Origin: a virus | Taxonomy: Duplodnaviria > Caudoviricetes | DNA length: 61,874 nt | Virus record (IMG/VR): IMGVR_UViG_3300021404_000012 | Span: 1 to 61,874 of that record | Strand: one strand, 5' to 3' | Shown: one piece after another, positions 195-53,965 of the stretch | Layout of the letters: every line of letters starts with the position of its first letter | Numbering within the stretch: the first letter of the stretch is position 1 | Position numbers and translations under genes: made by a program | The notes under the pieces: model-generated | Told to the model about the DNA's origin: nothing | The model's input: the letters and a program-made list of their open reading frames with translations, nothing else | Databases searched by the model: none

Positions 195-413
195 ACGCTC
201 CACACTTGGGTTCTCGCTCCTGATCGGGCTCGCGCTCACCTAAGGGGTTCTCGCAAGTACGAGGGCTCGCGCATGAGGCTGGGTTCTCGCAGTTTAATGG
301 GCTCGCGCGTGGGGCAGGGTTCTCGCTGATTGTGGGGCTCGCGCATTGACTAGGGTTCTCGCAGTACAAAAGGCTCACGCCGCTCGTTGGGTTCTCGCCA
401 GCACTTTGGGCTT
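195..413 (-). ncRNA. TIGR-like dual-repeat guide array (6 units) downstream of the helicase
   Basis: Alternating GCGCGAGCCC and GCGAGAACCC(C) repeats separated by 8-nt variable spacers, 36-37 nt period. Confidence 0.9.
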
Positions 414-1968
414 AATATTCCAGCACCTGCTGGTGAAACAGCTCCAGCAACATGCCCTGGAAAGTGGCACGTTCACGTAGACGCTTGTACGCTAACCGCT
501 CCACCGGGGTCCCAATCAGGTGGGCAATAATTGTTTTCGACAGTTGTCCGGGTCTTACGATACGAGCGTTGGCTTGCTCGTAGGTTTCATAATTATTGGT
601 TGGGCCGAACCAGACGATGAGGTTGGCGGCGGTTAGGTTTAGCCCATGAGACATACAGCCGGGGTGCGCGACGATCACCCTCGGCTCGGGTTCCTCCTGA
701 AAGGCGCGGAAGGTCTTGTTTCTAAACCCGACCGGCGAGCCGCCGTGGATCACCGCAACGCTGGTCTCCTTTTGGAGGGCCGCAGCGACGCCCTCTAACG
801 CGTGGATGAACGGCACGAAGACGATCACCTTGCGGCTGGTGCTCGCGACCAGCTCGCTCAGCATGTCGATCCGGTTGTCGTTGGATAATTTTATTTTAGT
901 TCCCTTGTCGGAGTAGACATACCCCAAGGAAACTTGAAGTAACTTGCTCTGCAGCACGCCCTCGTTGACGGCGGTCACCACCTCGCCGCGCTGGGTCATC
1001 ATCGATGCCTTATCGAACAGCAGCTTGTACGCCTTGCGCGTCTCGGGTTCGAGCTGCACCTGATGGTCCCGATAGATCGTCGGCGGCAGCTCGATCACGT
1101 CGGTCAGCGCGAACCTGACGCTCGGCTGCATCTGCTCGTACACGATGTCCATCGCCTGCGGGCGGTTCACCCACTTGAAGCCGGTGATCTGGCGCATCGT
1201 CATGTCCTTGAACCGGTTCAGCGACGTGCTGGTCCGGTCGGGGGTGAGCAGCCTGATCTGCCCCCACGCATCGGTCGCGGCCTTGGGCACCGGCGAGCCG
1301 GTCAACCCCCACACAAACTGCGGCGGCTTCGCGCCGCTGCGGATGACGGCGTTCGCCGCCTTCCACAGGTCGGTTGACTTATTGCGGAACGTCGCCTGTT
1401 CGTCGATCACAAAGATGTCGAAACCCTTTTTGATCAGCGCGTCGCGCATCAGCGGCAGGCCGTGGTGGTTGATGATGTAGAAGTCGGCGTCATCCTCCAG
1501 GCGCTCCAGCCGCGTGCGCCGGTCGCCGTGCAGCACTCTTACCCTGGCAAGAGGCAACAGCCGAAACAGCTCGGCCTCCCAAACGGGGGTTAAAGTAGAC
1601 AGGGGGGCGGCGATCAGCACCCGCTTCGCGCCGGCGTGCCGGCGTAGATAGTCCGCCGCCCAGATGACGGCGCGGGTCTTACCGGTGCCAAATTCATTCA
1701 GCACATACGCGCTCGCGCTCTCAGTCAGCAGTGCTGCCGTGATCTTCTGGGTGTGCCAGGGTTTCTGGTTGCACCAGTCGTAGCGCGTGAGGATCGGCGC
1801 GGGGACGGGGATGCCCAGGTTGCGCGCGACCTTCGCCTCGGCGTGTTGATTGGGGACCAGCAACATGCGCTGCCCCTGGTAGTCGAGAGCGCGGGCGTGC
1901 GGCATCACGCTCGCGAGGTCCTGCCTCCAAGGCACGACAATGTGATTAGCGTCGGCGGTAACAAACAT
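412..1968 (-). CDS. SNF2/DEAD-like superfamily 2 helicase
   Basis: NEFGTGKT Walker A, VIDE motif II, LTGSP motif III, HGLNLT and QANARIVRPGQ motifs; probable start ATG 1968. Confidence 0.9.
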   Translation of the reverse strand: MFVTADANHIVVPWRQDLASVMPHARALDYQGQRMLLVPNQHAEAKVARNLGIPVPAPILTRYDWCNQKPWHTQKITAALLTESASAYVLNEFGTGKTRAVIWAADYLRRHAGAKRVLIAAPLSTLTPVWEAELFRLLPLARVRVLHGDRRTRLERLEDDADFYIINHHGLPLMRDALIKKGFDIFVIDEQATFRNKSTDLWKAANAVIRSGAKPPQFVWGLTGSPVPKAATDAWGQIRLLTPDRTSTSLNRFKDMTMRQITGFKWVNRPQAMDIVYEQMQPSVRFALTDVIELPPTIYRDHQVQLEPETRKAYKLLFDKASMMTQRGEVVTAVNEGVLQSKLLQVSLGYVYSDKGTKIKLSNDNRIDMLSELVASTSRKVIVFVPFIHALEGVAAALQKETSVAVIHGGSPVGFRNKTFRAFQEEPEPRVIVAHPGCMSHGLNLTAANLIVWFGPTNNYETYEQANARIVRPGQLSKTIIAHLIGTPVERLAYKRLRERATFQGMLLELFHQQVLEY

Positions 1969-1970
1969 TC

Positions 1971-2279
1971 CTACACACTCCTGTTGCCCACTACCGTAGT
2001 GATCCATTGTTCCAGTTCCACTATCCGGTCGTAGCTGTTGATGACGAAGACGCGTGCGCCGCTCTGTTCAATCTCGCTTATTGTCATTTCCTGCATCGGG
2101 GTTGGCTTGCCACCAATCCGTTTCGCTTCGATCGCAAAGCCAAGTCCACAGCAGAAACCTATATAATCCAATGTCCTGCGTCCGTACCCTCCCGGCACCG
2201 GCATATAGGCGTACACATGCGGGCGGTAACGATCCAGCACCGCCTTGATCCCGCGCTTGATCTTCGTCTCTGGGGTCAT
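1971..2279 (-). CDS. VRR-NUC domain nuclease (putative Holliday junction resolvase)
   Basis: TPETKIK...LDYI...AIEAK..GGKPTPMQ PD-(D/E)XK VRR-NUC pattern. Confidence 0.85.
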   Translation of the reverse strand: MTPETKIKRGIKAVLDRYRPHVYAYMPVPGGYGRRTLDYIGFCCGLGFAIEAKRIGGKPTPMQEMTISEIEQSGARVFVINSYDRIVELEQWITTVVGNRSV

Positions 2280-2599
2280 GCCACCAGACACAAATAGGCA
2301 AGGAACGCCTCCGGTATCAGGACGGCGGCATTTCTGCCGTCAGATAACTGCGTCGGTTGCAGGCGGGTCTCGAACTCCCGCCCGTCCTCGGTAACAAACA
2401 CGGCGATGGCGGCAATGAAGTAGGGGTCCATGCGCAGCCGCACGCTCAGACGTTCGCGTAGTCCCTCGGGGAGCTGCTCGTAGAGCGCCGCGAACACGGG
2501 ATGGCAGCGCACCGCATCCATACCGGCAAGCGGAACCCACCGCTTCGTCATTGGCGGCGGCGTCATAATTCCGCGAAAGGTGTTTCCTGGGAGGACCAT
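2276..2599 (-). CDS. Hypothetical protein
   Basis: Translationally coupled at both ends (TAATG, ATGA) within the replication operon. Confidence 0.6.
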   Translation of the reverse strand: MVLPGNTFRGIMTPPPMTKRWVPLAGMDAVRCHPVFAALYEQLPEGLRERLSVRLRMDPYFIAAIAVFVTEDGREFETRLQPTQLSDGRNAAVLIPEAFLAYLCLVA

Positions 2600-3276
2600 T
2601 ACCCTCTCCCGTGATACGGACAGCTCGTGACGTGGCACCACCGCTTGCACAGCCCGTTGGGTTTAGCCGGAAACTCCTGCGTCTTAACCGCCATGCGCAG
2701 CTTGGCGACCCTTGGTAAAACCTCGGACCAGATTTCCGGCAAGCTCTCCTGGGTATACTCCGCGCGCTCGACGTGGTTGTGATTGACGAACATCAGCACG
2801 GCGCGCACCCGTTCGACCTTTGGCATGTAGTGCATGATCGTCGCCGACATCAGGCTCATCTGCGTGTCGTCGCTCGTCACCTTGCCGGTCTTGTAGTCGA
2901 TGACGGAGGCGCGGTTCTTGTTGATGTTGCAGAAGTCGAGCACCGTCCTGAACCACGTCCGCTTGTCGGTCCACCCGCACGGCTGGTAGTCCTCGGTCAG
3001 CGCCAGCTTCTGCTCGGCGTAAATCTCACCGGGCATCGTCATCAGCTTGGCGAGCAGCGTCTCATGCTGCACCAGGGGCAGGGGCAGGGGCGTACCCTTT
3101 CTCACCCGCAACTCGAACGCCTTATGTGTGTCGCTGCCCTCGAACTGCGCCGCGTTGCCGTCGCCCACGTCCTTGGCGATGTCGTAGTGCCAGTGCCGCT
3201 TCGGACATGTTTCAAAATTTTTGAGCCGGGAGTAGCTCCAAGAGAAGCCACTACGGGTAGTGACAACCATGTTCAT
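2599..3276 (-). CDS. Cas4/RecB-like PD-(D/E)XK exonuclease with Fe-S cysteines
   Basis: WSYSRL...CPKR N-terminus, LD...VIDYKTGK nuclease motif, C-terminal CKRWCHVTSCPY. Confidence 0.85.
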   Translation of the reverse strand: MNMVVTTRSGFSWSYSRLKNFETCPKRHWHYDIAKDVGDGNAAQFEGSDTHKAFELRVRKGTPLPLPLVQHETLLAKLMTMPGEIYAEQKLALTEDYQPCGWTDKRTWFRTVLDFCNINKNRASVIDYKTGKVTSDDTQMSLMSATIMHYMPKVERVRAVLMFVNHNHVERAEYTQESLPEIWSEVLPRVAKLRMAVKTQEFPAKPNGLCKRWCHVTSCPYHGRG

Positions 3277-3362
3277 AGCACTGCCCTCACTGCACAAAAG
3301 ATCAGCACCCACAAGACGAGGTTGACGGCGGTTATCAATAACCCAATGTGCCCGCAGGTCAT
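3273..3362 (-). CDS. Small hydrophobic peptide (29 aa)
   Basis: MTCGHIGLLITAVNLVLWVLIFCAVRAVL; ATGA-coupled to both neighbours. Confidence 0.45.
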   Translation of the reverse strand: MTCGHIGLLITAVNLVLWVLIFCAVRAVL

Positions 3363-3622
3363 CGGCGGGGTCCTCCTTGATGGGCGTTCGAGATCGCCCG
3401 GTTGTTCACGCCGAAATGAACCGCCGCGTCCATGTTGTTGTTGGCTGGATGCGTTCTGAAATACTGGACCACCTCGGCCTGCGTGACCTTGCGCTCGCGA
3501 CGCGGCGGCGCCTTGCGGATCGGCGGGCGCCGGTGCAGCTCAGCCGCTAGTTCCAGCAGCCGGGGGATGCCCAGGTTCTGACCGTGCATCAGCAGCTCGA
3601 CGCGTATCTCGGGTATCCTCAT
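3359..3622 (-). CDS. Hypothetical protein with possible C-terminal HTH
   Basis: ORF in operon; NNMDAAVHFGVNNRAISN is HTH-like. Confidence 0.6.
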   Translation of the reverse strand: MRIPEIRVELLMHGQNLGIPRLLELAAELHRRPPIRKAPPRRERKVTQAEVVQYFRTHPANNNMDAAVHFGVNNRAISNAHQGGPRR

Positions 3623-4353: not shown

Positions 4354-4592
4354 TGGTTCACCCTCCGCTCGGCATCGTCTGCCTCCACGTCAGAAATGTA
4401 GATGGCGACAATTTCGGTAAGTCCGCGTGGTGATATGCCTAACTTCCACGAGTGTAGGTGGTAGCCCTCCTTCGCGAAGGCGTTCAGGTCAGCCTCGAAA
4501 TCAACGGTGCAATTGCCCATAATTTCTTCGGTGTAACGGCGAACAACCAGCATAACTCCCCTCCCTTCACGCATTAACTCGTCGCTCCGCAT
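4350..4592 (-). CDS. Hypothetical protein
   Basis: ORF in operon orientation. Confidence 0.5.
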   Translation of the reverse strand: MRSDELMREGRGVMLVVRRYTEEIMGNCTVDFEADLNAFAKEGYHLHSWKLGISPRGLTEIVAIYISDVEADDAERRVNQ

Positions 4593-6474
4593 CGAGCAAC
4601 GTCACACCCCAGCCGCCTTCGCTGGCGAGCGGCAGGTCGGGCGCCCAGGTAGGCGGGGTGCGGAACTGCCAGTCCAGCTCGGCGTCGATGTCCTCCGCTT
4701 CACTAACAGGGACACAATAGTCCAGGCTGTCGTGGGTACTGAGGAAGGGTCGATGCCCGGTGAGCTGGTACACCCGCACCATGATGTCGGTGACGATGAT
4801 GCGCGACAGCGCCTGTGACACATTCTCCGTCACCTTCGCGCCGTACACCCGCTGCGCCCCGCCGTAGGGGTCGTTGTAACAGGGCTCCAAGTCACCCGCC
4901 GGGTTCTCAAAATAACGCATCTCCGGGTAGGCGATCTTGAGCCCGTTCGGCAGTACGATGCTGTCGAAGTCGGCCTTGATCGGCAACCGGTCGAGCACCG
5001 CGTAAGCGGACGAGCGGGCGCGTACACCACGCAACGAACGCTGCCCGATGATCTCGCCGATCAGGTAGCCCAACGCGTTCCACAGGTCGGGGATTTCGAC
5101 AAAGGTAGTGCGGTAGTGGTTGACGATCCGCTTGGCCTCGTCGTCGCTCGCCCGATAGCTGATACCACCGTTGCCGATAAACAGCATGTGGCGGAACCGA
5201 TACGCGCCGCAGCCGTAACCAAGCCCCAGGATCGCCGTCTTCCCGACAAACCTTTCCTTGATGTGCTGGTGCCGGTCCACCACGTAGCCATAAACAAGCG
5301 AAGCAAACTCCGAATACACGTCGCGCCCTTGATTAAAGGCGATGAGTAAAGGTAAACAATATGCCATCCACGCCGTCATGCGCGCCTCGATCTGGCTCGC
5401 GTCGCGATGCACGATGCGCCATCCCGGCGGAGCCAGAATGGCCTCGCGGATGCGTGAGCCCCGCTTGAAGTTCTGCCAGTTCGTCCCGTCATCCCCCGAC
5501 AGGCGGTGCGTCCTCGCGCCTGAATACTTCAGGGGCACCGGCGCCCAGCCCATGCCCTGCATCGGCCAGGAGGTGTTGGCTAATCTCAGCAACGCCCTGG
5601 TTCGGGTTTCCTCGATCGTCGATTTGACGGCGAGCCGCGCTGCCAGCAAGGCTTGCACATAGATAGGCTGGCTCTCGTCGGCGCAGAGTTCCTTAAAGGC
5701 CCAGTCATTTTTTGCAATTGCTGGAATTTCCTCACCGGTCGCCGGCGATATCTTCATCGGCACATCGACGCCGGCATCTTCCAGCAGCGCAGCGAATTTT
5801 TTATTGGACGAGAATACAGCTTTATCAAGCTGTTCCACCTCGGCCATAACCGCCGCCTTCTCGGTCTGCACCTCGTCGAGATGCTCGGCCAGGAGCTGAT
5901 CGTCGAGCTGGACTTGGGGTAATATCCCCATGCGGAGTACGAGGTCGATGATCTGCAGCTCGTGCGCGGTGAAGCACGGGCGCAGCCGCTGGAAAATGTC
6001 GTGGCAATTCTCGTTATCGCGTTCGCAGTACGAGCGGTACGCGCTCAGCTCGGCGGGGGTGAAATCGGCGAGCCGTTTTCCTATGGCCCGCGTGACTTCA
6101 TCGCCCTTGGGCGGCAGCCCGATGTAGTCGGAAACCGCTCGGAGAGAACTCTTGCCGATCCGCCAGTGCGTCGTCGCCCGCGCCATCGACAATGTGTCGA
6201 GATAGAGTTTCGGCACGTAGCCGAAGCGCCACGCGAGGATCGCGCCGTCGAACCGGGTGTGGTGCGAGACCCATGCGACACGCGCCCAGTCGAGTTGACT
6301 GAGCGCGTGCGCGATGGCGTCGTACCCGACATGGGTCACAGTCGGCTGGTTGCCGACCTTAAGGGCCAGCATTATCGCCTCGAACCTAGGGTCGAGGATA
6401 TACTCAGCCTCGGACATTTTTGAGAGGCTGTAGTCCCGATCGTAGTAAGTTTCCCAATCCCCGGTGATGATCAT
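4567..6474 (-). CDS. polA: Family A DNA polymerase with 3'-5' exonuclease domain
   Basis: GDWET ExoI, HHTRFD ExoII, YCERD ExoIII; motif A DASQIEAR, motif B RFVGKTAILGLGYG, motif C THDS. Confidence 0.92.
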   Translation of the reverse strand: MIITGDWETYYDRDYSLSKMSEAEYILDPRFEAIMLALKVGNQPTVTHVGYDAIAHALSQLDWARVAWVSHHTRFDGAILAWRFGYVPKLYLDTLSMARATTHWRIGKSSLRAVSDYIGLPPKGDEVTRAIGKRLADFTPAELSAYRSYCERDNENCHDIFQRLRPCFTAHELQIIDLVLRMGILPQVQLDDQLLAEHLDEVQTEKAAVMAEVEQLDKAVFSSNKKFAALLEDAGVDVPMKISPATGEEIPAIAKNDWAFKELCADESQPIYVQALLAARLAVKSTIEETRTRALLRLANTSWPMQGMGWAPVPLKYSGARTHRLSGDDGTNWQNFKRGSRIREAILAPPGWRIVHRDASQIEARMTAWMAYCLPLLIAFNQGRDVYSEFASLVYGYVVDRHQHIKERFVGKTAILGLGYGCGAYRFRHMLFIGNGGISYRASDDEAKRIVNHYRTTFVEIPDLWNALGYLIGEIIGQRSLRGVRARSSAYAVLDRLPIKADFDSIVLPNGLKIAYPEMRYFENPAGDLEPCYNDPYGGAQRVYGAKVTENVSQALSRIIVTDIMVRVYQLTGHRPFLSTHDSLDYCVPVSEAEDIDAELDWQFRTPPTWAPDLPLASEGGWGVTLLDAERRVNA

Positions 6475-6479
6475 TAGAC

Positions 6480-6516
6480 GCGCCCTCGATTGGGGTTCTC
6501 GCATTGGAAAGGGCTC
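6480..6516 (-). ncRNA. Single TIGR-like guide unit
   Basis: GAGCCC-tttccaat-GCGAGAACCCC-aatcgagg-GCGC in the intergenic gap before polA. Confidence 0.85.
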
Positions 6517-6522
6517 ATCACA

Positions 6523-7242
6523 TTATGATCCTTCTACTTTCGGGGTCAACTTCCAATCTTCAATCGTGCACTGGACCGGTGCCTTATCGACGACGATGCC
6601 GTGCATCTGCGCCCCGGTGAACAGCGCAGAGATCACTTCCATCTTTTCCTCGTTATCGACAAACCAGTCATACGCGCCGCCGCTGCTCGGCCAGTCGAAC
6701 GCGTTGGTATTCCGGGGCAGGTGGCGCACCCGCTCGGCCCACGGGTTGCCCATCTCCTGCGCGACCACCGTCATCCCCGGCCAGCGCTTGATCAGCGAGG
6801 CGAGGGTGCCGCCATGACAGCGGGATAAAAATTCATCGATGATCCTCTTGGCGACGCGCATCTGGCGCGCATACTCAAGCGCCGGGTCGAGCCACGCGTG
6901 GAACGCCTCCCGCTTATCGGCGGTCAGCGCGGCGAGGTTGAACCGCCGGGTCCCGCCGGCGAAGTAAGGATACTTCAAATCCCTCGACACGATCTTCAGC
7001 GTGACCATCGCCTCGGGGGTGACCACTTGCACGTCCAAGGAGTTGGCCTCGTGATGGTACACCTTTGCCTCCTTGACCATGCGCCACGCCTCCTGCAGCT
7101 CACGCGGCCACACGCAGTCGAACGCCTCCTGCGCCGTCAGCGGAAAGTCGAGCAGCCGCAGCGCGAGCGTGCTGTCGATCAGGTCGTTGGCTTTTCTCTT
7201 GAACTGCCGCAGGGGTTCAGGATTGGTCTTATAGTTTGGCAT
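6523..7242 (-). CDS. Hypothetical protein
   Basis: ORF with GGAGTGTGA RBS. Confidence 0.7.
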   Translation of the reverse strand: MPNYKTNPEPLRQFKRKANDLIDSTLALRLLDFPLTAQEAFDCVWPRELQEAWRMVKEAKVYHHEANSLDVQVVTPEAMVTLKIVSRDLKYPYFAGGTRRFNLAALTADKREAFHAWLDPALEYARQMRVAKRIIDEFLSRCHGGTLASLIKRWPGMTVVAQEMGNPWAERVRHLPRNTNAFDWPSSGGAYDWFVDNEEKMEVISALFTGAQMHGIVVDKAPVQCTIEDWKLTPKVEGS

Positions 7243-7519
7243 CTTCACACTCCGTCTGTTCGCCCCGGTGAACCGTCAGTGGCACCGACATGCGATGATG
7301 TTCAAAGGAAACTTGGTAGTAGCCGGTCATGCCGTCTGTCGTCATCCCGACCACTTCAACACTGGTCTCGCCTCCCCAGTTTATTTTTGATAACTCGATC
7401 GCGAACGCCTCCGCTGCCTCCTTCATCCACTGCTTCACCACTACGGTAGTGGTTTGGTCGTTGGTGAAGCGCCAGTACGGCGCTTCACTTGGGTCGTAGA
7501 TGCCGGGGTCCAGGGTCAT
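7229..7519 (-). CDS. Hypothetical protein
   Basis: ORF in operon, ATGA coupling. Confidence 0.55.
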   Translation of the reverse strand: MTLDPGIYDPSEAPYWRFTNDQTTTVVVKQWMKEAAEAFAIELSKINWGGETSVEVVGMTTDGMTGYYQVSFEHHRMSVPLTVHRGEQTECEDAKL

Positions 7520-7707
7520 GCGTCACCTACTTCGTCGACGCTCACCACATCAGGCGGGCCGTTAGTCATAAGAAACCGCCACCCCGTAAAGTCGATTTGC
7601 GCAGCTTTTTCCAGCGCTATGCGCTCAGCATCATCGCTGTTCTCAGCCTCGACGTAGATCGTGGCTTCCTCGCTGAGGAGCTGCGTCAGCCCTACCTTGA
7701 ACTTCAT
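7516..7707 (-). CDS. Hypothetical protein
   Basis: MKFKVGLT... coupled to the vWA gene stop. Confidence 0.6.
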   Translation of the reverse strand: MKFKVGLTQLLSEEATIYVEAENSDDAERIALEKAAQIDFTGWRFLMTNGPPDVVSVDEVGDA

Positions 7708-9098
7708 ACCGTGATCCTCACGGTGTCGCCCCACGGACCCTTGATCTCCGTGGTCGCGCACCAGATGACTGGGTACTTGGGCTCTTGCGGCCAGCTACTG
7801 GGCATCATGTCCGTGAGGTACACGAGGGTATCAGGAATAATATTTCTTTCAGACAACCACTCGAACGCCGGCTGGAACTCCGTGCCGCCGCCACCGGGCG
7901 AACCCTCCTGGCGGATATGCGACAGCTCGTCGAGGCTGCGCGCCTCGTCCACCCGCTGCACCTTGGCGTCGCACCACATGAGCATGACCCTTTTGGGCTT
8001 ACAATCATTCAGCACGCCGCCCACCTCGGCAAAGCACGCGGCGAGTTCCTTCTCACTAACCGAGCCGGAATTGTCCACGACGCACACCACCAGCTCGGCG
8101 CCGTAGCCGCGCCGCCCCGGCATATAGACCATCGGGTTTAAAACTATCCTCCTTCTGTTCGGGTGGTCCCAGGTTTCCCGCCGGTTGCCGACTTTACCGG
8201 TTAGAACTATTCTAATGTGTTCACGCCAGTTAACTTGCGGCTGGAGGATTTCGTCGATCATCCGCTTGATGTTCGCCGGCAGCTTGCCCGCCCGCTTCGC
8301 CGCCTGCTCGGCACGGGCGATGGCCTCCCGAAACTCGACCTCGTGCGGCACGTCGTCTACCCCCTGCCCATCGCGCTCGGGCGGCAGCACCTCGTCAAAG
8401 CGCCCGTTGTTCGCCTGGGCCTGCTTGTCGCGGTCGCCGCCCTTCTTGCCGGTCGCCTCGCCGTAGGTGTTCGGCCTAGGCAATTGCTGTTGCTGACCAT
8501 GTTGCTGACCACTGGCACTACCGGTAGTCGGCTGGCCTTCCTCATCGCTTTCCTCGTCACCCTGTCCACCTTGCGGCGGGCAATTCGGCTGCGGGATCGT
8601 CGGCACCGGCGGGGGAGGCGGCGGTGGGGGAAGTTTCTTGTAGAGCTTGACGTAGACATCCTCGGCCAGCTCGCTGGCCTTGATGTCGGGGTCGTACAGC
8701 CACGCGGGATTGCACGTCCCGATCTTGCTGGCCACGAGGTCGGCGTTGATCACGTAGTCCGCCGCCGTGTTGAACAGGTCCTGCATGAAAGGCAGCCCCT
8801 TCAGCTCGCCGGCCTGAAGGTAGTAGCGCATCCGTATCGGGTGCTTGTAGATGACGTGATACACCTCGTGCGCCAGGGCAAAGCACCGCTCCGTGGGCTT
8901 GAGCGTGGCGAAGTAGGCCGGGTTCACGAAGATGCGCTTGGCGTCCGTCGCGAGCGTCTTGATGGCGCGTGTCGGCCACATCTCCATCTTGTCGTAAAAG
9001 TAATACGAGAAGAACGGAGCGTAGATCACAAAGGAAGCCATGGCTTCCTCCATGATCCGCTGATCGGTGCTGTTGAGGGTTACTTTCGGCGGTAACAT
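7704..9098 (-). CDS. Metallopeptidase plus vWA domain protein (DUF2201-like)
   Basis: HEVYH zincin motif, Pro/Gln/acidic linker, VVDNSGSV MIDAS motif, GGGTEF, YLTD. Confidence 0.88.
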   Translation of the reverse strand: MLPPKVTLNSTDQRIMEEAMASFVIYAPFFSYYFYDKMEMWPTRAIKTLATDAKRIFVNPAYFATLKPTERCFALAHEVYHVIYKHPIRMRYYLQAGELKGLPFMQDLFNTAADYVINADLVASKIGTCNPAWLYDPDIKASELAEDVYVKLYKKLPPPPPPPPVPTIPQPNCPPQGGQGDEESDEEGQPTTGSASGQQHGQQQQLPRPNTYGEATGKKGGDRDKQAQANNGRFDEVLPPERDGQGVDDVPHEVEFREAIARAEQAAKRAGKLPANIKRMIDEILQPQVNWREHIRIVLTGKVGNRRETWDHPNRRRIVLNPMVYMPGRRGYGAELVVCVVDNSGSVSEKELAACFAEVGGVLNDCKPKRVMLMWCDAKVQRVDEARSLDELSHIRQEGSPGGGGTEFQPAFEWLSERNIIPDTLVYLTDMMPSSWPQEPKYPVIWCATTEIKGPWGDTVRITV

Positions 9099-9109
9099 TT
9101 CACACTCCA

Positions 9110-9487: not shown

Positions 9488-9490
9488 TTT

Positions 9491-11723: not shown

Positions 11724-11786
11724 CGTAGTCACACTCTCCACTACCGGTAGTCACCAGGGACAATCCCTGGTAACGCCCTGTGTATA

Positions 11787-11815: not shown

Positions 11816-11882
11816 TAAAAATCTTTGACGGTAAAAACAGGGTAAAATTAATCGCTGTGGAATATCAGATAGTTATCGGAAA

Positions 11883-11919
11883 CTGTCACCGACACTACTG
11901 GTAGTGGTGCCGGTGACAG
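11883..11919 (-). terminator. Hairpin closing the 3' end of the main guide array
   Basis: CTGTCACCG...CGGTGACAG stem enclosing a CACTACTGGTAGTG motif. Confidence 0.6.
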
Positions 11920-12385
11920 CTCGCGCTCGAGCAAGGGGTTCTCGCTATTCATGGGGCTCGCGCAGATCGTTGGGGTTCTCGCCAACTGCTGGGCTCGCGC
12001 CTCATCAAGGGTTTTCCGCTAGGTAAAGGGCTCGCGCCGGGGTAAGGGGTTCTCGCCTAACGTTGGGCTCGCGCTTGATCAAGGGTTCTCGCAAGGCACC
12101 AGGCTCGCGCTCATCGTAGGGGTCATCGCAATAAAGGGGGCTCGCGCAAATCGTGGGGGTTGTCGCTTATGACCGGGCTCGCGCTTAGGGCTGGGTTTCT
12201 CGCTCAAGATTGGGCTCGCGCCCACGTTTGGGTTCTCGCTACTCGTAGGGCTCGCGCAATTTCAAGGGTTTGTCGCTCCAGATTGGGCTCACGCTCCTGC
12301 TAGGGGTTCTCGCTGATGGTTGGGGCTCGCGCCGCTCGAAGGGGTTATCGCAACTATTAAGGCTCGCGCCTACTTTCGGGTTGTC
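11919..12385 (-). ncRNA. Main TIGR-like dual-repeat guide array (12 units plus a partial unit) downstream of the Tas-like gene
   Basis: 36-37-nt period, two alternating repeats, 8-nt unique spacers. Confidence 0.93.
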
Positions 12386-12484: not shown

Positions 12485-13372
12485 TTATGCAGGGATCGGG
12501 GGTGGGATGTAGTCGACGTGGTGCAAATGACCGATGGGGTACGGCACCGGCGACGCTTGCCCGGTGCGGATCAGCCACACTTCGTTCATGTGAGACAAAA
12601 ATAACTTCACCGCCCAGCGTCGTGCCCTCGCGTCTATCTGCGAGGGTGGCAGCCGGCCCTCGGCGTAATGCTTATAAGTGGGTGTATCCTTGGCAAAACG
12701 AGGCAGCCACTCCTTCGCGGTCTCGACCCGTTTGCCGGTATCGGACATCATCTGTTCAAAGGCTTTTCGCTCGCGGTATTTTCTTCCGTAGAAGCAATCT
12801 TCACGGTTCGAGAGTTTCATAAACGACTGCCCCGCGTGCCAGCATATGGTCTTGAGCTGCACGTTGAAGGGGCGCACCTGGCCCGCCTTCCACGGTTTCT
12901 GGTCGGCTGCGGCCCACCCGACGAATGAATTGATATGACCAGCCGTGGGTCTGGGCACCTCCAGATGCGCGAGAATGCCCGCGCTGATCACCGGCCCGAT
13001 CCCGACGATCTGCCGCATCCAACTACCCATTATATGGGCAGTTGTATAGGTATCCAGGGCGCGCTTGATCTGGCTCTCTAAAATTCTCGACTGATTAAAA
13101 AGCCAGTCGATTAGGACGTGGGGTTCTGGCGTTGTCAGAACTTCACCAGCATCTTCCTCGACCACGACGCCCCTCGCCATCGCGCGGATTTGGTTCGCCG
13201 CGCGCTTGCGGTTTTCCTGCGATGTGTAATACGCATCGACCAAAAATCTGGCTTCTTTTGGACCCATCGTGCGGGCGGCGTTGGCTAAATCTCTGGTTAA
13301 CCTGATGACAGACGGCGCGTGCTCGATGATTTCCTCGTCATCGACATAGGTCGCATAGGCTGGCGATGCCAT
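12485..13372 (-). CDS. Nop-domain/IS110-related RNA-guided DNA-binding protein (TasA-like, no RuvC or HNH)
   Basis: Coiled-coil region then GIGPVISAGILAHL (IS110 Transposase_20-like HhH), PFNVQLKT, YGRKYRERK, IDARARRWAVKLFLSH; no N-terminal DEDD RuvC; flanked on both sides by dual-spacer arrays. Confidence 0.8.
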   Translation of the reverse strand: MASPAYATYVDDEEIIEHAPSVIRLTRDLANAARTMGPKEARFLVDAYYTSQENRKRAANQIRAMARGVVVEEDAGEVLTTPEPHVLIDWLFNQSRILESQIKRALDTYTTAHIMGSWMRQIVGIGPVISAGILAHLEVPRPTAGHINSFVGWAAADQKPWKAGQVRPFNVQLKTICWHAGQSFMKLSNREDCFYGRKYRERKAFEQMMSDTGKRVETAKEWLPRFAKDTPTYKHYAEGRLPPSQIDARARRWAVKLFLSHMNEVWLIRTGQASPVPYPIGHLHHVDYIPPPIPA

Positions 13373-13405
13373 GTTGTTCCCTCCCACTTAACTACGGTAG
13401 TGGGA

Positions 13406-13470: not shown

Positions 13471-13765
13471 GCGCTGTACAAAGGGGTCATCGCGCGTTGT
13501 AGGGCTCGCGCCCGACGGAGGGTTCTCGCGGTGATACGGGCTCGCGCCAGTCATCGGGGTTATCGCGGAGGATTGGGCTCGCGCTCGTAGTCGGGGTCAT
13601 CGCTTCTTGAGGGGCTCGCGCCGCTTGTCGGGGTTATCGCTCATGTGCGGGCTCGCGCTCGTTGCAGGGGTTGTCGCATATAGCTGGGCTCGCGCTCACC
13701 TTAAGGGTTCTCGTCGTCAACTGGGCTCGCGCACCAGAAAGGGGTTATCGCTTGCTTCAAGGCTC
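13471..13765 (-). ncRNA. TIGR-like guide array (8 units) upstream of the Tas-like gene
   Basis: Same alternating repeats and 8-nt spacers. Confidence 0.92.
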
Positions 13766-16779: not shown

Positions 16780-16835
16780 AAGTCACACTCCTGAAAGTGC
16801 CGCCACTACCGCGTAGTGGCAGTGGCGGCGGTTTA

Positions 16836-16985
16836 TTAGAAACAGGTGGTGTTGCAGTATTGTTGATTACCGATAGTGTAACAACTCGTATGACATGAAT
16901 ACGCCTGCGCCTTGGATGCGGCGAAACCGCAGAGCCCGAGCCCGACGATGGCGAACAGCGCAACACCCGTAATGTACTTAACCAT
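16836..16985 (-). CDS. Small secreted cysteine-rich peptide (49 aa)
   Basis: MVKYITGVALFAIVGLGLCGFAASKAQA-YSCHTSCYTIGNQQYCNTTCF; below the ORF-track cutoff. Confidence 0.65.
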   Translation of the reverse strand: MVKYITGVALFAIVGLGLCGFAASKAQAYSCHTSCYTIGNQQYCNTTCF

Positions 16986-17081
16986 TTCAGTCACTTTCAC
17001 TAACACCAGGGGATTTCCTGGCAGCCGAAAACCCCGACGCCATCACGCGTTCGGGGTTCGGGGTTAGATGTTACACCGCAG

Positions 17082-17276
17082 TCATCTTACAGTCCTTCCC
17101 TCGGCGAGGCGGCGCGCCTCGATCCTGCGGATGGTGTCGCGATGCCCCTCGATGGCAGTACGGACATTGCGTCCGTACTCACCAAAGCGGTTGTCACCTT
17201 GACCCAGAGTGTACTCAAGGCGCCGGATCGCTGCGTGCGCCTCGCGATAAAGTTTTTCCTCCGCGTCGTATTTCAT
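17082..17276 (-). CDS. Hypothetical protein
   Basis: GGAGAGTGTGAC RBS. Confidence 0.6.
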   Translation of the reverse strand: MKYDAEEKLYREAHAAIRRLEYTLGQGDNRFGEYGRNVRTAIEGHRDTIRRIEARRLAEGRTVR

Positions 17277-17359: not shown

Positions 17360-17423
17360 CACTCACTCCACTACGGTAGTGGCGGTGAATAGTACCATCG
17401 TACTTTCACCGAACAAATCGTGG

Positions 17424-17603: not shown

Positions 17604-17688
17604 CTCGACCAACTCCAAAAAATAAATCGCCGACCACTACCGTAGTGGCGGTCCGTTCTCGGTACACGCAACCTGCGAGTAACGAGAT

Positions 17689-17720
17689 CATTAGTTTAAA
17701 CTAATGGTTGAGTTTGTCAA
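17689..17720 (-). promoter_or_regulatory. Early promoter with a perfect 18-bp palindrome over the -10 box
   Basis: TTGACA-N16-TAAACT; palindrome CATTAGTTTAAACTAATG at 17689-17706. Confidence 0.65.
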
Positions 17721-17899
17721 TAGAAAATATTAGGGGCATATTTTCAGGTGGTCTCGACGCGGGGGATATTTGTGGGTGGTGTCCTCGTGATGACGCACGT
17801 AAATGCGCCGCCGCGACGTGGTGCCGCAACGCAGAATTTATCTGTATGCTACGACGGCACTACAAAGTTGAGTTGGCTAACTGCCTTATACCAAACGAA

Positions 17900-18480
17900 T
17901 AATTAGTGCCAACAATTCTAGGGTTGAGTTTAAAAATATCCTCGACTACTGGTAGTTGGTTGTAATGGCGTTTTGGCGAATTAGGACATATTTAAAAGTG
18001 GCGTAATTTCCTCATATAATATCAACGTCTCAAGTGCATTATTCCATTATTCCATAAGATTTTTCACCATAAGACCATACACACACCCCCAATCTCGAAA
18101 CGCATCGAATGTAATCGAGCACTCGATTTCACGTATCCTCTTGTGCGGAAAAACGGGGTAGAAAAGTGGAATAATTAGGCTAACCCCCTGCTATATATAT
18201 ATATATTATTCCATTTAAAATAAAATAATAATGGCCTAATTGCCGTCGCGCCGTTTGTTTACGGTTGACCGTGATCGTTCTCGGGATAGCATGCGTGACA
18301 ACTGGCATTAATCCACATCGGGAGCCCGCGCGAAATGGCTCAATGCCCTAATCCAGTCTCAGCGTGCATTAGGTATCGGTAGATTATTTAATGAAATCAA
18401 TGCGTTAAGATGCAATTGGCCGGTTACCCACGATAAAAACCCACATCAATTGATCCATGTCGCACTACGGGTAGTGGATC
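17900..18480. other. AT-rich non-coding region, candidate replication origin
   Basis: No credible ORF; (TA)n tract at ~18192-18206; repeated TTATTCCA and AATTAGG. Confidence 0.4.
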
Positions 18481-18519
18481 ATTGCGCGAACTTTCACGCG
18501 CGCGAAAGATCGTGGGCAC

Positions 18520-18553
18520 AAAAAAACCCCGCACGGCGCAAGCCGTGCGGGGT
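18520..18553 (-). terminator. Rho-independent terminator
   Basis: CCCCGCACGGC-ttgc-GCCGTGCGGGG followed by a T tract. Confidence 0.85.
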
Positions 18554-18572
18554 CGAGTGTGAGCGTCGCTGA

Positions 18573-19532: not shown

Positions 19533-19873
19533 GATTGCGAACTCACACTTTGGTTGTCGGGACGATGTTGTCCCATCAATGGCGAAGCTGATTTGAACTA
19601 CCGGTAGTGCCACCTTCACCGTCACAAAGTGACGGTGCGGACCTGGCCCTTGTGCATGATGCGTGCGTCATTATGCGTGCATCCCGTGCGCGTCACGAGG
19701 CTTCGGCCAGCCCCCGGCCCCGGTCTGTCCATGGCCCCCGGCCTGGCTCCCGCCGCCACCTGCAGCGCCTAGACGAGAGTGACCCAAAAAGTGAAGTTAA
19801 CTTTTATTAACGCCACTTCACCACTACGGTAGTGCGGTACGTCGCACCGGCAGCCCTAGGAACTGCCGGTGCC

Positions 19874-20201
19874 GCGCGTCACTCTGGGTTTCACGCCTAA
19901 AAAAGGGCTCGCGCCATCTGTTGGGTTCAATCGCACATCCTTGGGCTCGCGCCGCATCAAGGGTTTTCCGCTCACCTAAGGGCTTACGCTACTTGCCGGG
20001 TTTTCCGCTTTCCATTTGGTTCGCGCGTTTCTTCGGGGTTCTCGCACAAGGTCGGGCTCGCGCTGCCTGTCGGGTTCTCGCTCAGGACTGGGCTAAATCG
20101 AACCGCCGGCGCCGCCGGCGGCTCACACGCAGAGTGTCGGGGTTTTCGCCTGTAACTGGGTTCGCGCAATACATAGGGTTCAACGCGTGTCCTGAGGGCT
20201 C
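19874..20201 (-). ncRNA. TIGR-like guide array (6+2 units, split by a GC hairpin at 20103-20121)
   Basis: Alternating repeats (loop variants GCGGAAAACCC, GCGATTGAACCC) with 8-nt spacers; 3' hairpin at 19843-19872. Confidence 0.85.
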
Positions 20202-20341
20202 CGTGGTTGTTCACCACGGTTCACAGAATATCACCGTCGTAAATACAGGTCTACAAGTTTCGTATTTTTGAGATTGAGGATTTTCAATAACTTAACGTTT
20301 CTCTTGCGCGCGAATGACATTCTCGTTACGGTTTTATTCCC

Positions 20342-23470: not shown

Positions 23471-24883
23471 TCACGTCCACGCCGCTGATGAATACGGCGC
23501 TAACCCTGTGCCTTGCGTAGGGTTAAAGAAGCGGCGTTCTCGCATGAGAACCCTGCCGGTGAGGTTGCTCTGGGTGCCCAGGCAGAAATACTGGAGCGCG
23601 TCGCAGATATCCGACCAGGGGTGTAATTTCTCAGGTATGTCGTCGAGGACGCCGTCGCGGCGCCGCCTGTATCGATACTTATTACCGAGGGCGGAAATCA
23701 GGATCGGGCACCCGATCCTGCTTATTTGCAGGGCCGGCTGGCCCATCACCTGCTGTCTGAGGAATTTCTCGACGGCCAGCAACCGCATATCAATTACATT
23801 CGTACTCGCAGGGTAGGCTAAAAATCCCTCCTCCTTCAACACGTCGAAGGGGGTTTCTTCCCTGGTTTGCGACCGTTGGCGACCCGCAGGATCACCCACC
23901 ACAAAAACTCTTTTCCCCGCAAACGGCGGCGCCAGTAAGACCGGCTTGAGGTGCTCCTGCAGCATCTGCACCAGCCCCATGCCCTCGGTGACGATCTCCT
24001 TCATAATTATGGCTCTGCCGTAATTATCGTGCTGCCCGATCAGCGCGCACGGCGTGCGTCCGAAGTCCAAACCGATCATCAGGGGTTTGTTTGGATTAAC
24101 TGTTACACTCATGTCCTTGACGTGGGTGGGCGCGTGGAAGGTTCGCCTGAACACCGCCTGGCCGGCGTTGCTCTCGCCCCACTGGCTCTCGACGTGAACC
24201 AGGGACCACTCAACATCCTTGTCCCCCATTAATTCATCATAGTAGCCGTCAGGAAGGTTCTCGACGTTCTCGGCGTCGGGGCCGATGCCTGACGGCTGGT
24301 GATACAGCGCCCATGACGGGTGCGGATTTAATACCAGCCGGTCGTGGTAGGGACTTTCTGTATCCCAGGGATTTGTATCGGCGATGATCCCGCGCCAAGT
24401 GGCGCCGCCGAGGGCCTTGGAGGGATATCTTCCACACCGACCCAGTAGTGGGCGGATGATGTCGAACGGCACTTCACGCAGCTCGTTGATCCACGCGCCG
24501 GTGAGCTGCATTGAGAGTAACCTTCGGACATCTTCCTTGTTGTCCAACGGCAGTAGCATCCAGTCGCTGTGAACGCCTGTCCCATCCGGCAGGTGCAGCC
24601 TCACCTGCAGCGTGCTGTCGGTGACATAGTAGTGAACCGTCTCGCCCATGTACTGGATCGCGTCGGCTAGGACGGTCTGGCGGAGTTGCTGCAGCGTGTT
24701 TCTGATGAGCGCGAAGCGGGTGTAGCGGACGCCGTTGCTCGGCTCCTGCTCGATCGCCCGCCGCAGCAGCTCCATAATGCAGCCCATGGTCTTGCCCGAA
24801 CCGAGGGGGCCGACCAGCACGCGGATGACGTGTTGATCATCCAGCATGAAGTCCTGCACGGTTGGCGGGGGCTGGAAGAACAT
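23471..24883 (-). CDS. terL: Terminase large subunit
   Basis: GPLGSGKT Walker A, AWINE Walker B, DTNP, GLDFGRTP RNase H fold, GDPAG, DALQY. Confidence 0.93.
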   Translation of the reverse strand: MFFQPPPTVQDFMLDDQHVIRVLVGPLGSGKTMGCIMELLRRAIEQEPSNGVRYTRFALIRNTLQQLRQTVLADAIQYMGETVHYYVTDSTLQVRLHLPDGTGVHSDWMLLPLDNKEDVRRLLSMQLTGAWINELREVPFDIIRPLLGRCGRYPSKALGGATWRGIIADTNPWDTESPYHDRLVLNPHPSWALYHQPSGIGPDAENVENLPDGYYDELMGDKDVEWSLVHVESQWGESNAGQAVFRRTFHAPTHVKDMSVTVNPNKPLMIGLDFGRTPCALIGQHDNYGRAIIMKEIVTEGMGLVQMLQEHLKPVLLAPPFAGKRVFVVGDPAGRQRSQTREETPFDVLKEEGFLAYPASTNVIDMRLLAVEKFLRQQVMGQPALQISRIGCPILISALGNKYRYRRRRDGVLDDIPEKLHPWSDICDALQYFCLGTQSNLTGRVLMRERRFFNPTQGTGLAPYSSAAWT

Positions 24884-43337: not shown

Positions 43338-43340
43338 CCG

Positions 43341-46424: not shown

Positions 46425-46426
46425 CG

Positions 46427-49400
46427 ATGGCTGCCGCTTACGACGACGACGAAGACGATGAAGACGATTTTGAGGAGACTACGGCGCAGAGCAGCGACGA
46501 GACTGATCCCGGTTCGCTTAGGTCCGCGCTGCAACCGGCACAGCCCCAGTACAGCCCCCAAACCGAGCCCACGGCTGAACCCGAGCCGACGCCTGAACCG
46601 ATAGCGCCGACGCCGGGTGCGGCTCCTGCATCGGAACCGGCGCCGGCGGCGGCTCAACCGGCAGCGCAACCGCCGCTGCAACTGCCCAAAGGGTGGACCG
46701 CCGATCCCGACGCCCAGCCGGTTTACATCAATCAGCAGCCGGCGGAGGAACCGGCACCCGAGGCCGGTTACCTATCTTCGGCGTGGGGTGGCTTACTCAA
46801 GGGCGGCGCGCAGGAGGTCGAGAAACTCGCCAACCTCACCGCGACGGGGATGCGCAAAGTCGGTAGCTGGACCGATCAGGACTGGGCCAAGAGCGGGGCC
46901 GACTGGCTCGACCAATCGACAAAGGGCTTGTCCGAAGCCGCTGCTAAAAATGCTCCAGTCGGTGACCTGTCAGTCAAGGATGCTTGGGACAAGGGTGTCA
47001 TCGGGCCTTGGATCACCGAGAAGGCTGCCGAGGGCGTCCTGCCATTGGCGGAACTCCTGGCGCTTGGGCGGTTCACAGGCCCGTGGGGGCCGATCGCCTA
47101 CGGCGCGGCGGTGGGCGCGGATCGGGAAGGGCGCCGCCCCGGCTCGACCCCTGAGAGTATAGGCGCGGCAGCGGCTGAAGGCGGGGTTATGTTCGCCGCG
47201 CCGCTTGGCCTGCAGAAGACCACTGAAAATCTCGGTCTCTTTAAGCGCGTCATCGCTAATGTTCTGGGGATGGGCGGGCTTGGCGCGGCTGGCGAGTACA
47301 CCGCGCCCGTACCCGAGGCGGTCGCCACCGGCACCTACAAGGCACCGACAGGCGAGCAGGTCGCGACGGGTGCGGCTACGGGCGCAGTTCAAGGCGCACC
47401 GCTCGCGGCGATGGGCGGACGCCGCGCACCGGAGACCCCGGCGGCGAATGAAGACCCGGCGGTCAAAGCCGCGACCGATGCAGCAGTAAATCCCCAGACC
47501 GTGCCAAATGACCAGGCCGTGCCACCCAATACGCGACCGGTGCCGCCTGGTGCTCCGCCAGGTGTCGATCAGCCGATGACCCCTACGGGGATGCCAAGAG
47601 TTACAGTTCCGACAGATACTGCGCCGCCGGTCGACACCAACCCGCTGCGCGCACGGCAGCAGGGGCTTGGGCAGGGCTACCAGACAACCCCGTCGGACTT
47701 CGCTGCCGGGGGTGCGACGACGACCCCGGCGCCGGATGCAACGGGTCGGGTACGCGGGCTGGGTCCGGCGACGCCGGGTATCGATCCGGCGGCAGAGGCG
47801 GCGCTCGCCGCGACGATGCCGCAAGGCCAGGAACCGCCGGCTAATACCCGCCCAGCACCGCCGGGTCCGCCGGCTGGTGTCGATCAGCCGATGACGCCGC
47901 CGGGGATGCCGCGTGTCGCGCCAACCGAACCCGCCGCGCCGCCCGCAAACCCGCTGCGCGCACGCCAGGAGGGGCTGGCGCAGGGGCCGACGACGCCAGC
48001 GAATTTTGCCGCCGAGGGGACGATCCCGCCGACGCCGCCCGACGTGAACGCGCCGGTGCCGCGTGTGCGCGGGCTTGGCCCGACACCGCCACCGGTGGAA
48101 GCGGCAGATCAGGCGCCGCCTAACGAGCGCCCGGTGCCGCCGGGTGCGCCCCCCGGTGTCAATGAGCCGATGGCACCGGGTGGGATGCCGCGCGTGACGC
48201 CACCCGAACCGGCTGCGCCAACGGAGCCCGTCAATCCCCTGCGCGAGCGGCAGCGGTTCCCCGAGCAGCCGACGACGCCGGCAGACTTCGAGACCGAGCG
48301 GCGCATCCCGACCGCGCCCAGCCCCGAGGAGTTGGAGCCGCCGGGAGGTCGCACGATCCGTCGCTACACAACGGAGCCCGACCACGAAAACCCAGACCAG
48401 CATGTGGCGAAGGACGAGGCTGGCAACGTCGTCGCGCTGGGTAGTACGCCCGAGATAGCGGTCGAGATGGCGCGAGCGCGGGAAGCAGCGGAGGCGCGCG
48501 AGGCTGCTACTGCTCCCACTACCGTAGTGGAGCCGGCGGCTGCACCGGCTGAACCAGCCCCGGTGGCACCGGCTGAACCAAAGGCATCGGCCAAAGCCAG
48601 GGCTAAGGGCGCAAAGATCACCCCCGCCGCTGCCGAGGTGCTCGACAAGGCGGAGGCTAAGCAGGCCGCGCCGGCGCCAGCACCAAAGGCCGCGACCGGC
48701 GAGGCGAAGGCAAAGCCTGCCCTCGTGGAGCTTGTCAGGAAAAGCCTGGGCGTCGGGAAGTCCAAGCCGGTCGAGACCACGGCGCAGACCACGCAGCGTG
48801 GCGAGACGCCCGCCGAACGTAGCGCGCGGATTGCTCGCGAGGTGAGAGCCGATGAGCGCGAGGCCAAACGTATGCCCGCAACGGCGACACCGGCGACGCG
48901 CGGTCTGGAGGATGTCGGCGGGCGTACCGCAGAGGAACAGGTCGAGCGCGTGCCGACAAGGACGCGTGAAGTGCAGACAGTTGCCGAGGCCGAGGGCCGC
49001 GAGACCAGCGAGCTGAAGTCCGATCAGCGCGCTGCCTCGACAACGAGCCTCGCGCTCAAGGCAAGCGATCTGCTGCACGACCATCTGGAAGGCCGGCTCA
49101 AAGACCCGATGGATATTTACGACCGTTACGGTGAGCCGAACGAAGGACGCGGGGCGCCGCGCAAATACGACACCTTCCTCGACTGGCTGAAGGACCGCAT
49201 CAAGACCGCCAAAAACCCCAAGGCGATGGAGGCGATCAACCGCGAAGCGGAGGAACTGAGGACCGACAAGACACTGACACCGGGTCAGCGCAACACGTTG
49301 ATCAAGCGACTGGCTGACCGGCTGCTTACGGAACGCGGCGCGCTCGACAAGATGAAGGCGATGCAGAAGGCGATCGAGATCGGGCTGAAAGAGCGGGCGA

Positions 49401-53620: not shown

Positions 53621-53716
53621 GTTGCCGTGGATGGGCGTAACGACGCTGGACCCAGCGTCCGACCTGAAACGCGGACAGTCGCTATCCGCGACGGCACCTA
53701 GTGGAGGAGGTTGACT

Positions 53717-53863
53717 ATGCCATTGAAGAAGGGTTCGTCCCGCGAAACCATCTCCTCGAATATCAAGACCGAAATTGCCGCCGGCAGGCCGCAGAAGCAG
53801 GCCGTTGCCATCGCATTAAACACGGCTGGCAAGAGCCGCCCCTCGGGTGGTAGAAAGAAGTAG
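53717..53863 (+). CDS. Small basic phage protein (48 aa)
   Basis: [34 protein letters not shown]...; GGAGG RBS. Confidence 0.75.
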
Positions 53864-53965
53864 CCCTACCTCGGGCGAGAACCCCTAAAGAAGCGCGAGC
53901 CCTGTTGGCAGCGCGAACCCAGCTACAGGCGCGAGCCCCGGAGGAGGTGCCAACCCCCGTAACAA
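53861..53965 (+). ncRNA. TIGR-like guide array (about 3 units) at the end of the virion operon
   Basis: AGCCC-N8-GCGAGAACCC-N8-GCGCGAGCCC-N8-GCGCGAACCC-N8-GCGCGAGCCC. Confidence 0.8.

Follow-up and report, generated by a model that had tools for sequence, protein, structure and literature searches.

TIGR-Tas systems were described in 2025 (Faure 2025, Science, PMC12045711), and both published surveys looked for guide arrays around the tas gene only. Faure 2025 reports arrays upstream and/or downstream of tas in a survey of 5 kb on each side, and Xu 2026 annotates arrays as 'surrounding tas loci'. Here we analyse the genome of a Caudoviricetes phage from soil, IMG/VR virus record IMGVR_UViG_3300021404_000012, over its whole length of 61,874 bp (the window), in which TIGR guide units occur at eight loci and the tas gene is flanked by two of them. 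We consider it probable that this is a dual-repeat TIGR-TasA system with guide genes beyond the tas neighbourhood and that one TasA is served by all of them. TasA proteins are RNA-guided repressors of transcription according to Xu 2026, and the natural role of the systems in phages, their targets and the origin of arrays or acquisition of spacers are stated as open in Faure 2025 and Xu 2026.

The closest described systems are other dual-repeat TIGR-TasA loci, for example that of Flavonifractor plautii. They share with the window a Nop-only effector, alternating 10-nt repeats, spacers of 8–9 nt, units of about 36 nt, truncated array edges and a terminator after the array. The window differs in that 20 of its 40 units are 6–40 kb off tas, three of them solitary in operons, and in that its box motifs are GCG/CCC instead of the published UG/CCA. 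Box letters may change provided that edge and loop repeats covary (Faure 2025). The SpTasH-TIGR system of Salicola phage CGphi29 (NC_020844; PMC13421893) is likewise phage-borne and dual-repeat, has 8-nt spacers and a Y/H dyad that aligns with that of the window protein, and its array lies inside a phage operon, among head genes. However, TasH has an HNH nuclease domain, which the window protein lacks, and in CGphi29 a single array stands beside tasH.

Faure 2025 sets the clustering of tigRNAs against the 'more sparsely distributed' snoRNAs. Box C/D snoRNAs (with Nop5/Nop56/58) resemble the window in having one Nop protein and many guides with box C/D-like ends, and in having guide genes spread over the genome, some of them within other transcription units. 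They target RNA methylation sites, whereas TIGR targets DNA via two spacers on opposite strands; furthermore, there is no fibrillarin/L7Ae partner, and the units of 36–37 nt have no K-turn stems. Guide repeats located away from effector genes, or without them, are also found as orphan and mini CRISPR arrays and as solitary repeat units in viruses. Those have another repeat architecture and another effector family, and unlike them the window has its effector in the same genome and solitary units in operons. We found no mention of genome-wide dispersal of units in the TIGR literature used here, whose supplements (Faure fig. S4, table S1; TIGRSafari) may show multi-locus cases. Within that literature, a layout with half of the guide units outside the tas neighbourhood and single units inside essential operons is undescribed for TIGR-Tas.

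Forty guide units at eight loci

The repeat unit of the window is a dual-repeat TIGR unit composed of edge GCGCGAGCCC, spacer A, loop GCGAGAACCC and spacer B, with a unit length and period of 36–38 nt. Edge and loop repeats alternate, are 10 nt long each, and both begin with GCG and end with CCC; the centre of the loop repeat is A-rich (AGAA or a variant). Spacer A has 8 nt (rarely 9–10) and spacer B 8–9 nt. As the sense strand of the units we chose the one that gives the A-rich loop centre, the GCG starts and the CCC ends, in agreement with the guide architecture that Faure 2025 reports for TasR. The first-pass annotation had counted about 40 units in eight loci, and this holds: 40 units were parsed and all eight loci are present at the positions it gave. 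Twenty of them flank tas (L3 and L4 below) and 20 are in the six other loci, which sit 6–40 kb from tas and of which three (L2, L6 and L7) are solitary units. Arrays next to tas are thus found at L3 and L4 only and not at the six loci that hold the other 20/40 units. In the family, adjacency to tas is habitual, the surveys having covered ±5 kb, but it is not a mechanistic requirement.

For detection of the distal units without circularity, a sequence model (R1) was trained on the 20 tas-adjacent units only and run over the whole window with filters off. The loci, with the R1 E-values of the distal ones, and the tas gene are as follows.

L1, 195-413, minus strand: six units with consensus loops in 6/6; E 3.6e-6 to 1.9e-3 for five units and 0.14 for the sixth.
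L2, 6480-6516, minus strand: one solitary unit, GAGCCC-8-GCGAGAACCC-9-GCGC; E 4.8e-6.
L3, 11923-12365, minus strand: array immediately downstream of tas with 12 units; a degenerate 13th stub reaches up to ~12395.
tas, 12485-13372 (frame 12485-13387, 300 aa), minus strand: TasA-type, Nop domain only, ~295 aa.
L4, 13471-13765, minus strand: eight units upstream of tas, from GAGCCT to GCGC.
L5, 19874-20201, minus strand: eight units as 2+6; four at E<1e-3 and four at 0.037-5.8.
L6, 22258-22294, plus strand: one solitary unit with consensus repeats, GAGCCC-8-loop-9-GCGC; E 1.7e-5.
L7, 24903-24944, minus strand: one solitary unit of divergent sequence, its 5' edge full and its loop lengthened to GCGTGAAAACCC; E=1.3.
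L8, 53861-53969, plus strand: two units and a third without 3' edge; E 1.9e-5 and 0.052, the third unmatched.

The first-pass annotation had suggested a pattern or model scan as a check, and both kinds of scan recover units far from tas. The full strict unit pattern has 11 matches in the window and none with the reversed control, and the half-unit pattern GAGCCC-N8-9-GCGAGAACCC has 13 exact matches vs 0 in each of 100 shuffles; chance origin of the unit matches is excluded. R1 detects 12/20 distal units at E<0.01, namely L2, L6, the first L8 unit, five units of L1 and four of L5. It places seven further distal units at E 0.037-5.8, and one (the last of L8) is unlisted. By itself the match to L7 is not significant. 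No full-length R1 match was found in the window outside the eight loci; the remaining 13 matches at E<=10 each cover only part of the model. Independently of R1, Tandem Repeats Finder reports arrays of period 36–37 at 245-367, 11919-12333 and 13520-13697. The R1 scores of L1, L2, L6 and the first L8 unit (21.6–23.9 bits) are within the range of the proximal units (17.9–29.9 bits) and the L1 loops are perfect in 6/6, so that these units are not decayed.

Distal and proximal units also resemble each other in their spacers. Spacer GC content is 46.7% in distal units, 44.4% in proximal units and 45.5% in all units vs 61.1% in the genome. Distal and proximal units have seven one-mismatch pairs of half-spacers in common, the null mean being 2.0 and 6/1000 shuffles reaching seven; TTAGGTGA-like half-spacers, for example, are present in L1, L4 and L5. 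The shared GC content and the recurring half-spacers suggest that distal and proximal guides form one functional pool.

Orientation, boundaries and gene context

According to the first-pass annotation the units always follow the local direction of transcription. All eight loci are consistent with this, but only five (L1, L2, L3, L4 and L7) are informative, having own-strand genes on both sides. L5 in a divergent gap and L6 and L8 in convergent gaps would fit in either orientation. The strand implied by the repeat motifs is supported by the flanking genes at 5/5 informative loci and by the terminator or strong hairpin that follows L3, L4, L5a, L5b and L6 (L5a and L5b being the two sub-arrays of L5). 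L3 ends with a nearly full edge and then a long hairpin at 11880-11925 (fold z −6.1), and L4 directly abuts an intrinsic terminator at 13470-13443 (12 pairs and a T run). The sub-arrays of L5 are parted by a 12-bp GC hairpin, and a 13-bp hairpin stands after L5. A structured stretch ending in TTTTTT precedes the L6 unit, which is followed by a 10-bp hairpin and TTTTTAT. A strong plus-strand terminator at 54074-54104 is located about 100 nt downstream of L8. L1, L2 and L7 have no terminator directly after them and run on into the next gene.

At their 5' ends, 7/9 array segments start with a 5'-truncated edge, (G/A/T)AGCC, and at their 3' ends 7/9 stop at GCG(C/T) without a full edge. The first-pass annotation took (G)AGCC and GCGC as the limits of the mature guide. 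This fits the published rule (Faure 2025) by which the edge repeats at both ends of an array are truncated and mature tigRNAs have their two ends mid-edge; the rule itself was already known. By their sequence, the solitary units L2 and L6 (GAGCCC...GCGC) are exactly one predicted mature-guide length.

The genes next to the distal loci agree with the earlier placement of these loci in gaps of the replication, packaging and virion regions, since they include an SNF2 helicase, DNA polymerase A, the large terminase and a 2397-aa virion-type protein. Three of these genes are listed here.

412-2007, minus strand: SNF2 helicase gene, leftward block.
4567-6474, minus strand: DNA polymerase A gene, its start supported by alignment from residue 1.
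23471-24883, minus strand: large terminase gene, packaging block.

The first unit of L1 overlaps the stop codon of the SNF2 helicase gene, and 25 nt separate the end of the array from the start codon of the following minus-strand gene (170). The gap between the stop of gene 6523-7248 and the DNA polymerase A start codon, an ATG at 6474, measures 48 nt, and L2 occupies 37 of them. At 6472-6490 the 3' end of L2 spacer B together with the half edge makes up a GAGG Shine-Dalgarno sequence 8 nt before this ATG. L5, the most degenerate array, lies in the divergent gap 19626-20341, where the leftward block begins. L7 lies in a 71-nt gap between the gene of a 188-aa protein and the large terminase gene, and L8 stands after the gene of the 2397-aa DarB-like protein at the end of the rightward virion block.

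The window is the whole virus record, classed as linear and estimated to be 98% complete. Nucleotides 1-126 are repeated at 61744-61869 and the map closes on itself. The genome is thus circularly closed or terminally redundant, despite its class 'linear without end repeats'. A leftward block runs from ~20.2 kb to position 1 and on, through the overlapping ends, to ~54.1 kb; besides the helicase and the polymerase it encodes an ATPase, tas and others. It is followed by a short rightward block (20.3–22.1 kb), the leftward packaging block (25521-22343) and the rightward virion block (25598-54104), whose first gene encodes an SU10-type portal and whose last gene encodes the DarB-like protein (a PHROG family). 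The nearest cultured phages are Rhizobium phages (portal 53% identical). Rfam and tRNA scans of the window gave nothing. A non-coding stretch of about 900 nt at 17650-18560 with 45% GC includes a run of (TA)7 as well as several matches to sigma-70-like promoters and may be an early control region or a replication origin.

A second dispersed element is the palindrome CACTAC-N1-3-GTAGTG, often CCACTACGGTAGTGG, with 21 copies in the window vs 0 in 100 shuffles. Its sites include 179-191, 7439-7451, 15502-14, 17369-81, 19822-34, 25042-54, 30781-93, 40283-95 and 41883-96, and a variant lies upstream of tas at 13391-13401. Most copies are a few to ~25 nt upstream of start codons, in leftward as well as rightward blocks, and the palindrome often continues into a GGAG ribosome-binding site. 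It follows the arrays L1, L3, L5 and, as a variant, L6. Possible roles of the element are those of a phage promoter, of an operator or of a hairpin in RNA.

The Tas protein and other Tas phages

Only one tas gene was found, in agreement with the single protein that the first-pass annotation had proposed for the genome. Its start is probably the ATG at 13372 (MASPAY...), which stands behind a putative GGGAGGG ribosome-binding site. In a phmmer search the Tas protein matches PDB 9MTY (TaTasR) with E 1e-6, and a 35-sequence profile (A1) searched against PDB gives 9MTY at 3.2e-20, TasH at 1.2e-12 and IS621 at 3e-4. No Pfam family was found in the protein at E<=0.01. The AlphaFold2 (AF2) model has a pLDDT of 81.5, with a disordered N-terminus followed by a helical part, and the top 10 Foldseek matches of this model are all TasH/TasR chains (E 8e-5 to 9e-4, probability 1.00, TM 0.44–0.62). 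The profile aligns to the Nop parts only, residues 144–324 of TasR and 89–303 of TasH. Since the matches cover only the Nop part and there is no HNH or RuvC nuclease domain, the protein is a TasA.

In SpTasH, Y289 and H296 are reported to cut pre-tigRNA (PMC13421893); this Y/H dyad belongs to the C-terminal loop of the Nop domain. In an hhalign comparison of A1 with CGphi29 TasH (probability 97.6%), Y283 and H290 of the window protein fall on these residues. Among the 35 homologues, H290 is present in 35/35, and at position 283 there is a Y in 24 of them and an F in the other 11. Judged by this alignment, the protein retains the putative Y/H dyad of pre-tigRNA processing.

The window Tas is 88% identical to a Tas encoded on a 61,898-bp contig (P0002) and 77% identical to one encoded on a 58,858-bp contig (P0003). 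Scans of IMG/VR and of metagenomes did not bring up the 61,898-bp contig, and the phage collection that we searched contains no Tas match and no DNA match to the window. With three relatives that have identical repeats (G001, G002 and G003) the window aligns at the DNA level in tas and the array only. The third-position GC of tas is 0.68 vs 0.73–0.86 in most phage genes. Together, the lower third-position GC and the lone alignability of this region suggest a putative tas and array module that moves between phage backbones. Two relatives of the backbone are without tas. In one, G004, polymerase A is 53% identical, and in the other, Rhizobium phage RHph_TM27A, the portal is 53% identical; the relaxed unit pattern has 0 matches in each. 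The gap of RHph_TM27A that is homologous to that of L7, before the terminase, has 37 nt and no unit, vs 71 nt with L7. Units co-occur with tas.

To see how arrays are placed elsewhere, we surveyed 86 Tas loci together with as much as 10 kb of flanking sequence at either end. Of these loci 80 are viral and 6 metagenomic, and some come from phages that are nearly identical. Arrays were detected at 65/86 of them; 39/65 have one multi-unit cluster and 17/65 have two. A multi-unit cluster at least 3 kb from tas was found at six survey loci (L062/L063, L077, L102 and L025/L032). Most other Tas phages hold their arrays beside tas, and a minority disperse them. The idea that seemingly arrayless Tas loci are fed by distal arrays was dropped, as G010 and G011 have small adjacent arrays. 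A solitary unit that a looser pattern placed at 47671 in G001 is false; it is on a gene boundary and has no edges. At survey loci L025, L026, L027, L028 and L032, with Tas ~70% identical, the tas-adjacent array is convergent with tas, and in the window it is on the same strand.

Among the dispersing phages is G006, whose complete genome of 82.5 kb encodes a Tas 50% identical to that of the window and has the repeats GAGCGAGCCA and GAGAGCACCA. Its 67 units form 9 clusters that span 26 kb, at 6.3–32.9 kb. Three units are solitary (8547, 14799 and 32843); they begin with AGCCA and end with GAGCG, so that their limits fall at the mid-edge position seen in the window. Each of the three has a hairpin beside it and two sit between own-strand genes. 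A 9-unit array at 16819-17175 is oriented against both neighbouring genes and, preceded by a bidirectional terminator, forms a transcription unit by itself. One unit of G006 (survey loci L111/L112) is present twice with both spacers identical, at 17034-17068 on the minus strand and at 24636-24670 on the plus strand, while the neighbouring units differ. This duplicate is a case of copying at single-unit scale.

In CGphi29 (survey locus L123) there is a candidate solitary unit at 8642-8676, AGCCA-8-AAAGACACCCA-8-AAGCG, 5.7 kb from tasH. It is in an 808-nt gap before the small terminase gene, just after a hairpin with a T run, and a rough estimate of its chance occurrence is 0.005–0.07.

A probable distributed guide repertoire and its alternatives

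If the window holds a TIGR-TasA system with one TasA and guide genes beyond the tas neighbourhood, the distal units would be transcribed within replication, packaging and virion messages. TasA dimers would bind edge and loop repeats at their ends, GCG being box-D-like and CCC box-C-like, and the Y283/H290 dyad would cut inside full edge repeats. The outer half-edge ends of arrays and solitary units would be set by flanking hairpins, terminators and trimming. Guides of 36–37 nt would lead TasA to DNA, spacer A pairing with one strand and spacer B with the opposite one. With a nuclease-free TasA the outcome would be binding or repression and not cutting. As a necessary by-product, messages that carry units would be cut at the unit sites. 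One TasA with guides co-transcribed with early and late messages appears to be the most economical functional reading of the genome. The first-pass annotation had proposed such a repertoire, expressed at different infection stages, and its interpretation is supported in part.

It is important to note that several observations weigh against this reading. The number of distal loci informative for orientation is only three (L1, L2 and L7, all sense). No sigma-70-like promoter was found for L5 or L6, and among the public runs no RNA run carrying window sequence is listed. Degeneration affects eight of the 20 distal units, namely L7, most of L5 and the final two in L8. Published minimal arrays required full edge repeats for processing (Faure 2025), and half-edged solitary units may therefore mature differently. 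Of the relatives with identical repeats, G001 (61.5 kb) and G002 (43.7 kb) have a single cluster beside tas, with 31–32 and 13 units, respectively, and G003 has three clusters, all within ~3.4 kb. Because these three keep their units clustered, dispersal is not needed for the system to work. Co-orientation with neighbouring genes is common and not a rule of the family, as the opposed array of G006 demonstrates. Finally, the search for targets gave no enrichment. The reported cut geometry of TIGR leaves 8-nt 3' overhangs (Faure 2025, PMC12045711), from which we derived the target form as spacer A plus the reverse complement of spacer B. The window was searched with this form and with the opposite geometry, allowing gaps of 0–2 nt and <=3 mismatches, against mispaired controls. 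Two-mismatch self-targets in the window number 4 vs 3.1 in the mispaired control, and cross-phage targets among 12 Tas-phage sequences number 1 vs 8 in the control. A one-mismatch site at 17398-17413 (guide 232-268) was rejected, being within chance (~0.16 expected over 40 guides, controls 0 and 0.3).

The position of the solitary units could also be explained if the distal units were selected mainly as cis-acting RNA, with TasA binding and cutting the polycistronic messages of the phage and so uncoupling or throttling neighbouring genes, and with guides as a by-product. These units are exactly intercistronic, L2 before polymerase A and L7 between the gene of the 188-aa protein and the terminase gene, and the Y/H dyad is present. 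As L2 forms the GAGG site of polymerase A, binding or cutting by TasA there would touch translation. A pure binding site needs no variable spacers, however, and the distal spacers all differ and have an array-like composition. Moreover, L1, L5 and L8 are multi-unit arrays and not single sites, while L6 and L8 come after the last gene of a block and have no downstream cistron to regulate. We therefore regard selection mainly as cis-acting RNA as unlikely.

The degenerate units of L5, L7 and the L8 tail raise the question whether array rearrangement or unit copying left the distal units behind as neutral, functionless remnants, tolerated only in intergenic gaps. The relatives with the same repeats, two with a single array and a third with clusters within ~3.4 kb, would agree with this, and the duplicate in G006 demonstrates that unit-sized copying occurs. 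A weak hint in the same direction is given by contigs from three soil DNA runs, which are short fragments, none listed spanning L2 or L7. A related-strain contig seems to skip one 37-nt L3 unit (12323/12361), although this is weak, one contig with depth 3.8 and likeness 85; a second skip, of 83 nt inside L5 (19952/20036), is equally weak, from a single low-depth contig with likeness 85. Leftovers would not be expected to keep consensus repeats with all spacers different, as L1, L2, L6 and the first L8 unit do, nor to be sense at 3/3 informative distal loci, nor, in the solitary units, to keep exactly the parts of a mature guide. This explanation seems to us quite improbable. That the repeats are DNA-level sites (iterons, partition) for a non-Tas protein is, although they are short and regularly spaced in non-coding DNA, most improbable. 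Phages that are otherwise unrelated carry identical repeats together with tas, whereas relatives without tas lack them, and in strand asymmetry, truncated ends and terminators the repeats are like transcribed TIGR arrays.

How units would come to be dispersed can be approached from the boundaries of the solitary units. In two unrelated Tas lineages these lie at the same mid-edge position, GCGCG/AGCCC in the window and GAGCG/AGCCA in G006. Such boundaries fit the view that tigRNA units are copy-and-paste modules, in which a guide-length piece cut mid-edge would be inserted in transcribed DNA and seed new arrays. The copy of a lone unit on opposite strands in G006 and the possible one-unit polymorphism in L3 would fit as well. 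We put this forward as a tentative proposal of low likelihood; if it is true, it answers how TIGR arrays arise and grow, and the organisation would resemble that of snoRNAs.

For the probable case of one TasA with a dispersed guide supply, we note the following. Half of the guide repertoire of one phage can sit away from tas, and some single guides can sit between essential genes of early and late operons. Array censuses, and the target predictions built on them, undercount guides. Guide supply and the cutting of carrier messages may be tied to the infection programme. The solitary units are natural minimal substrates for determining what processing requires, and unit-sized insertions give a handle on the birth of arrays.

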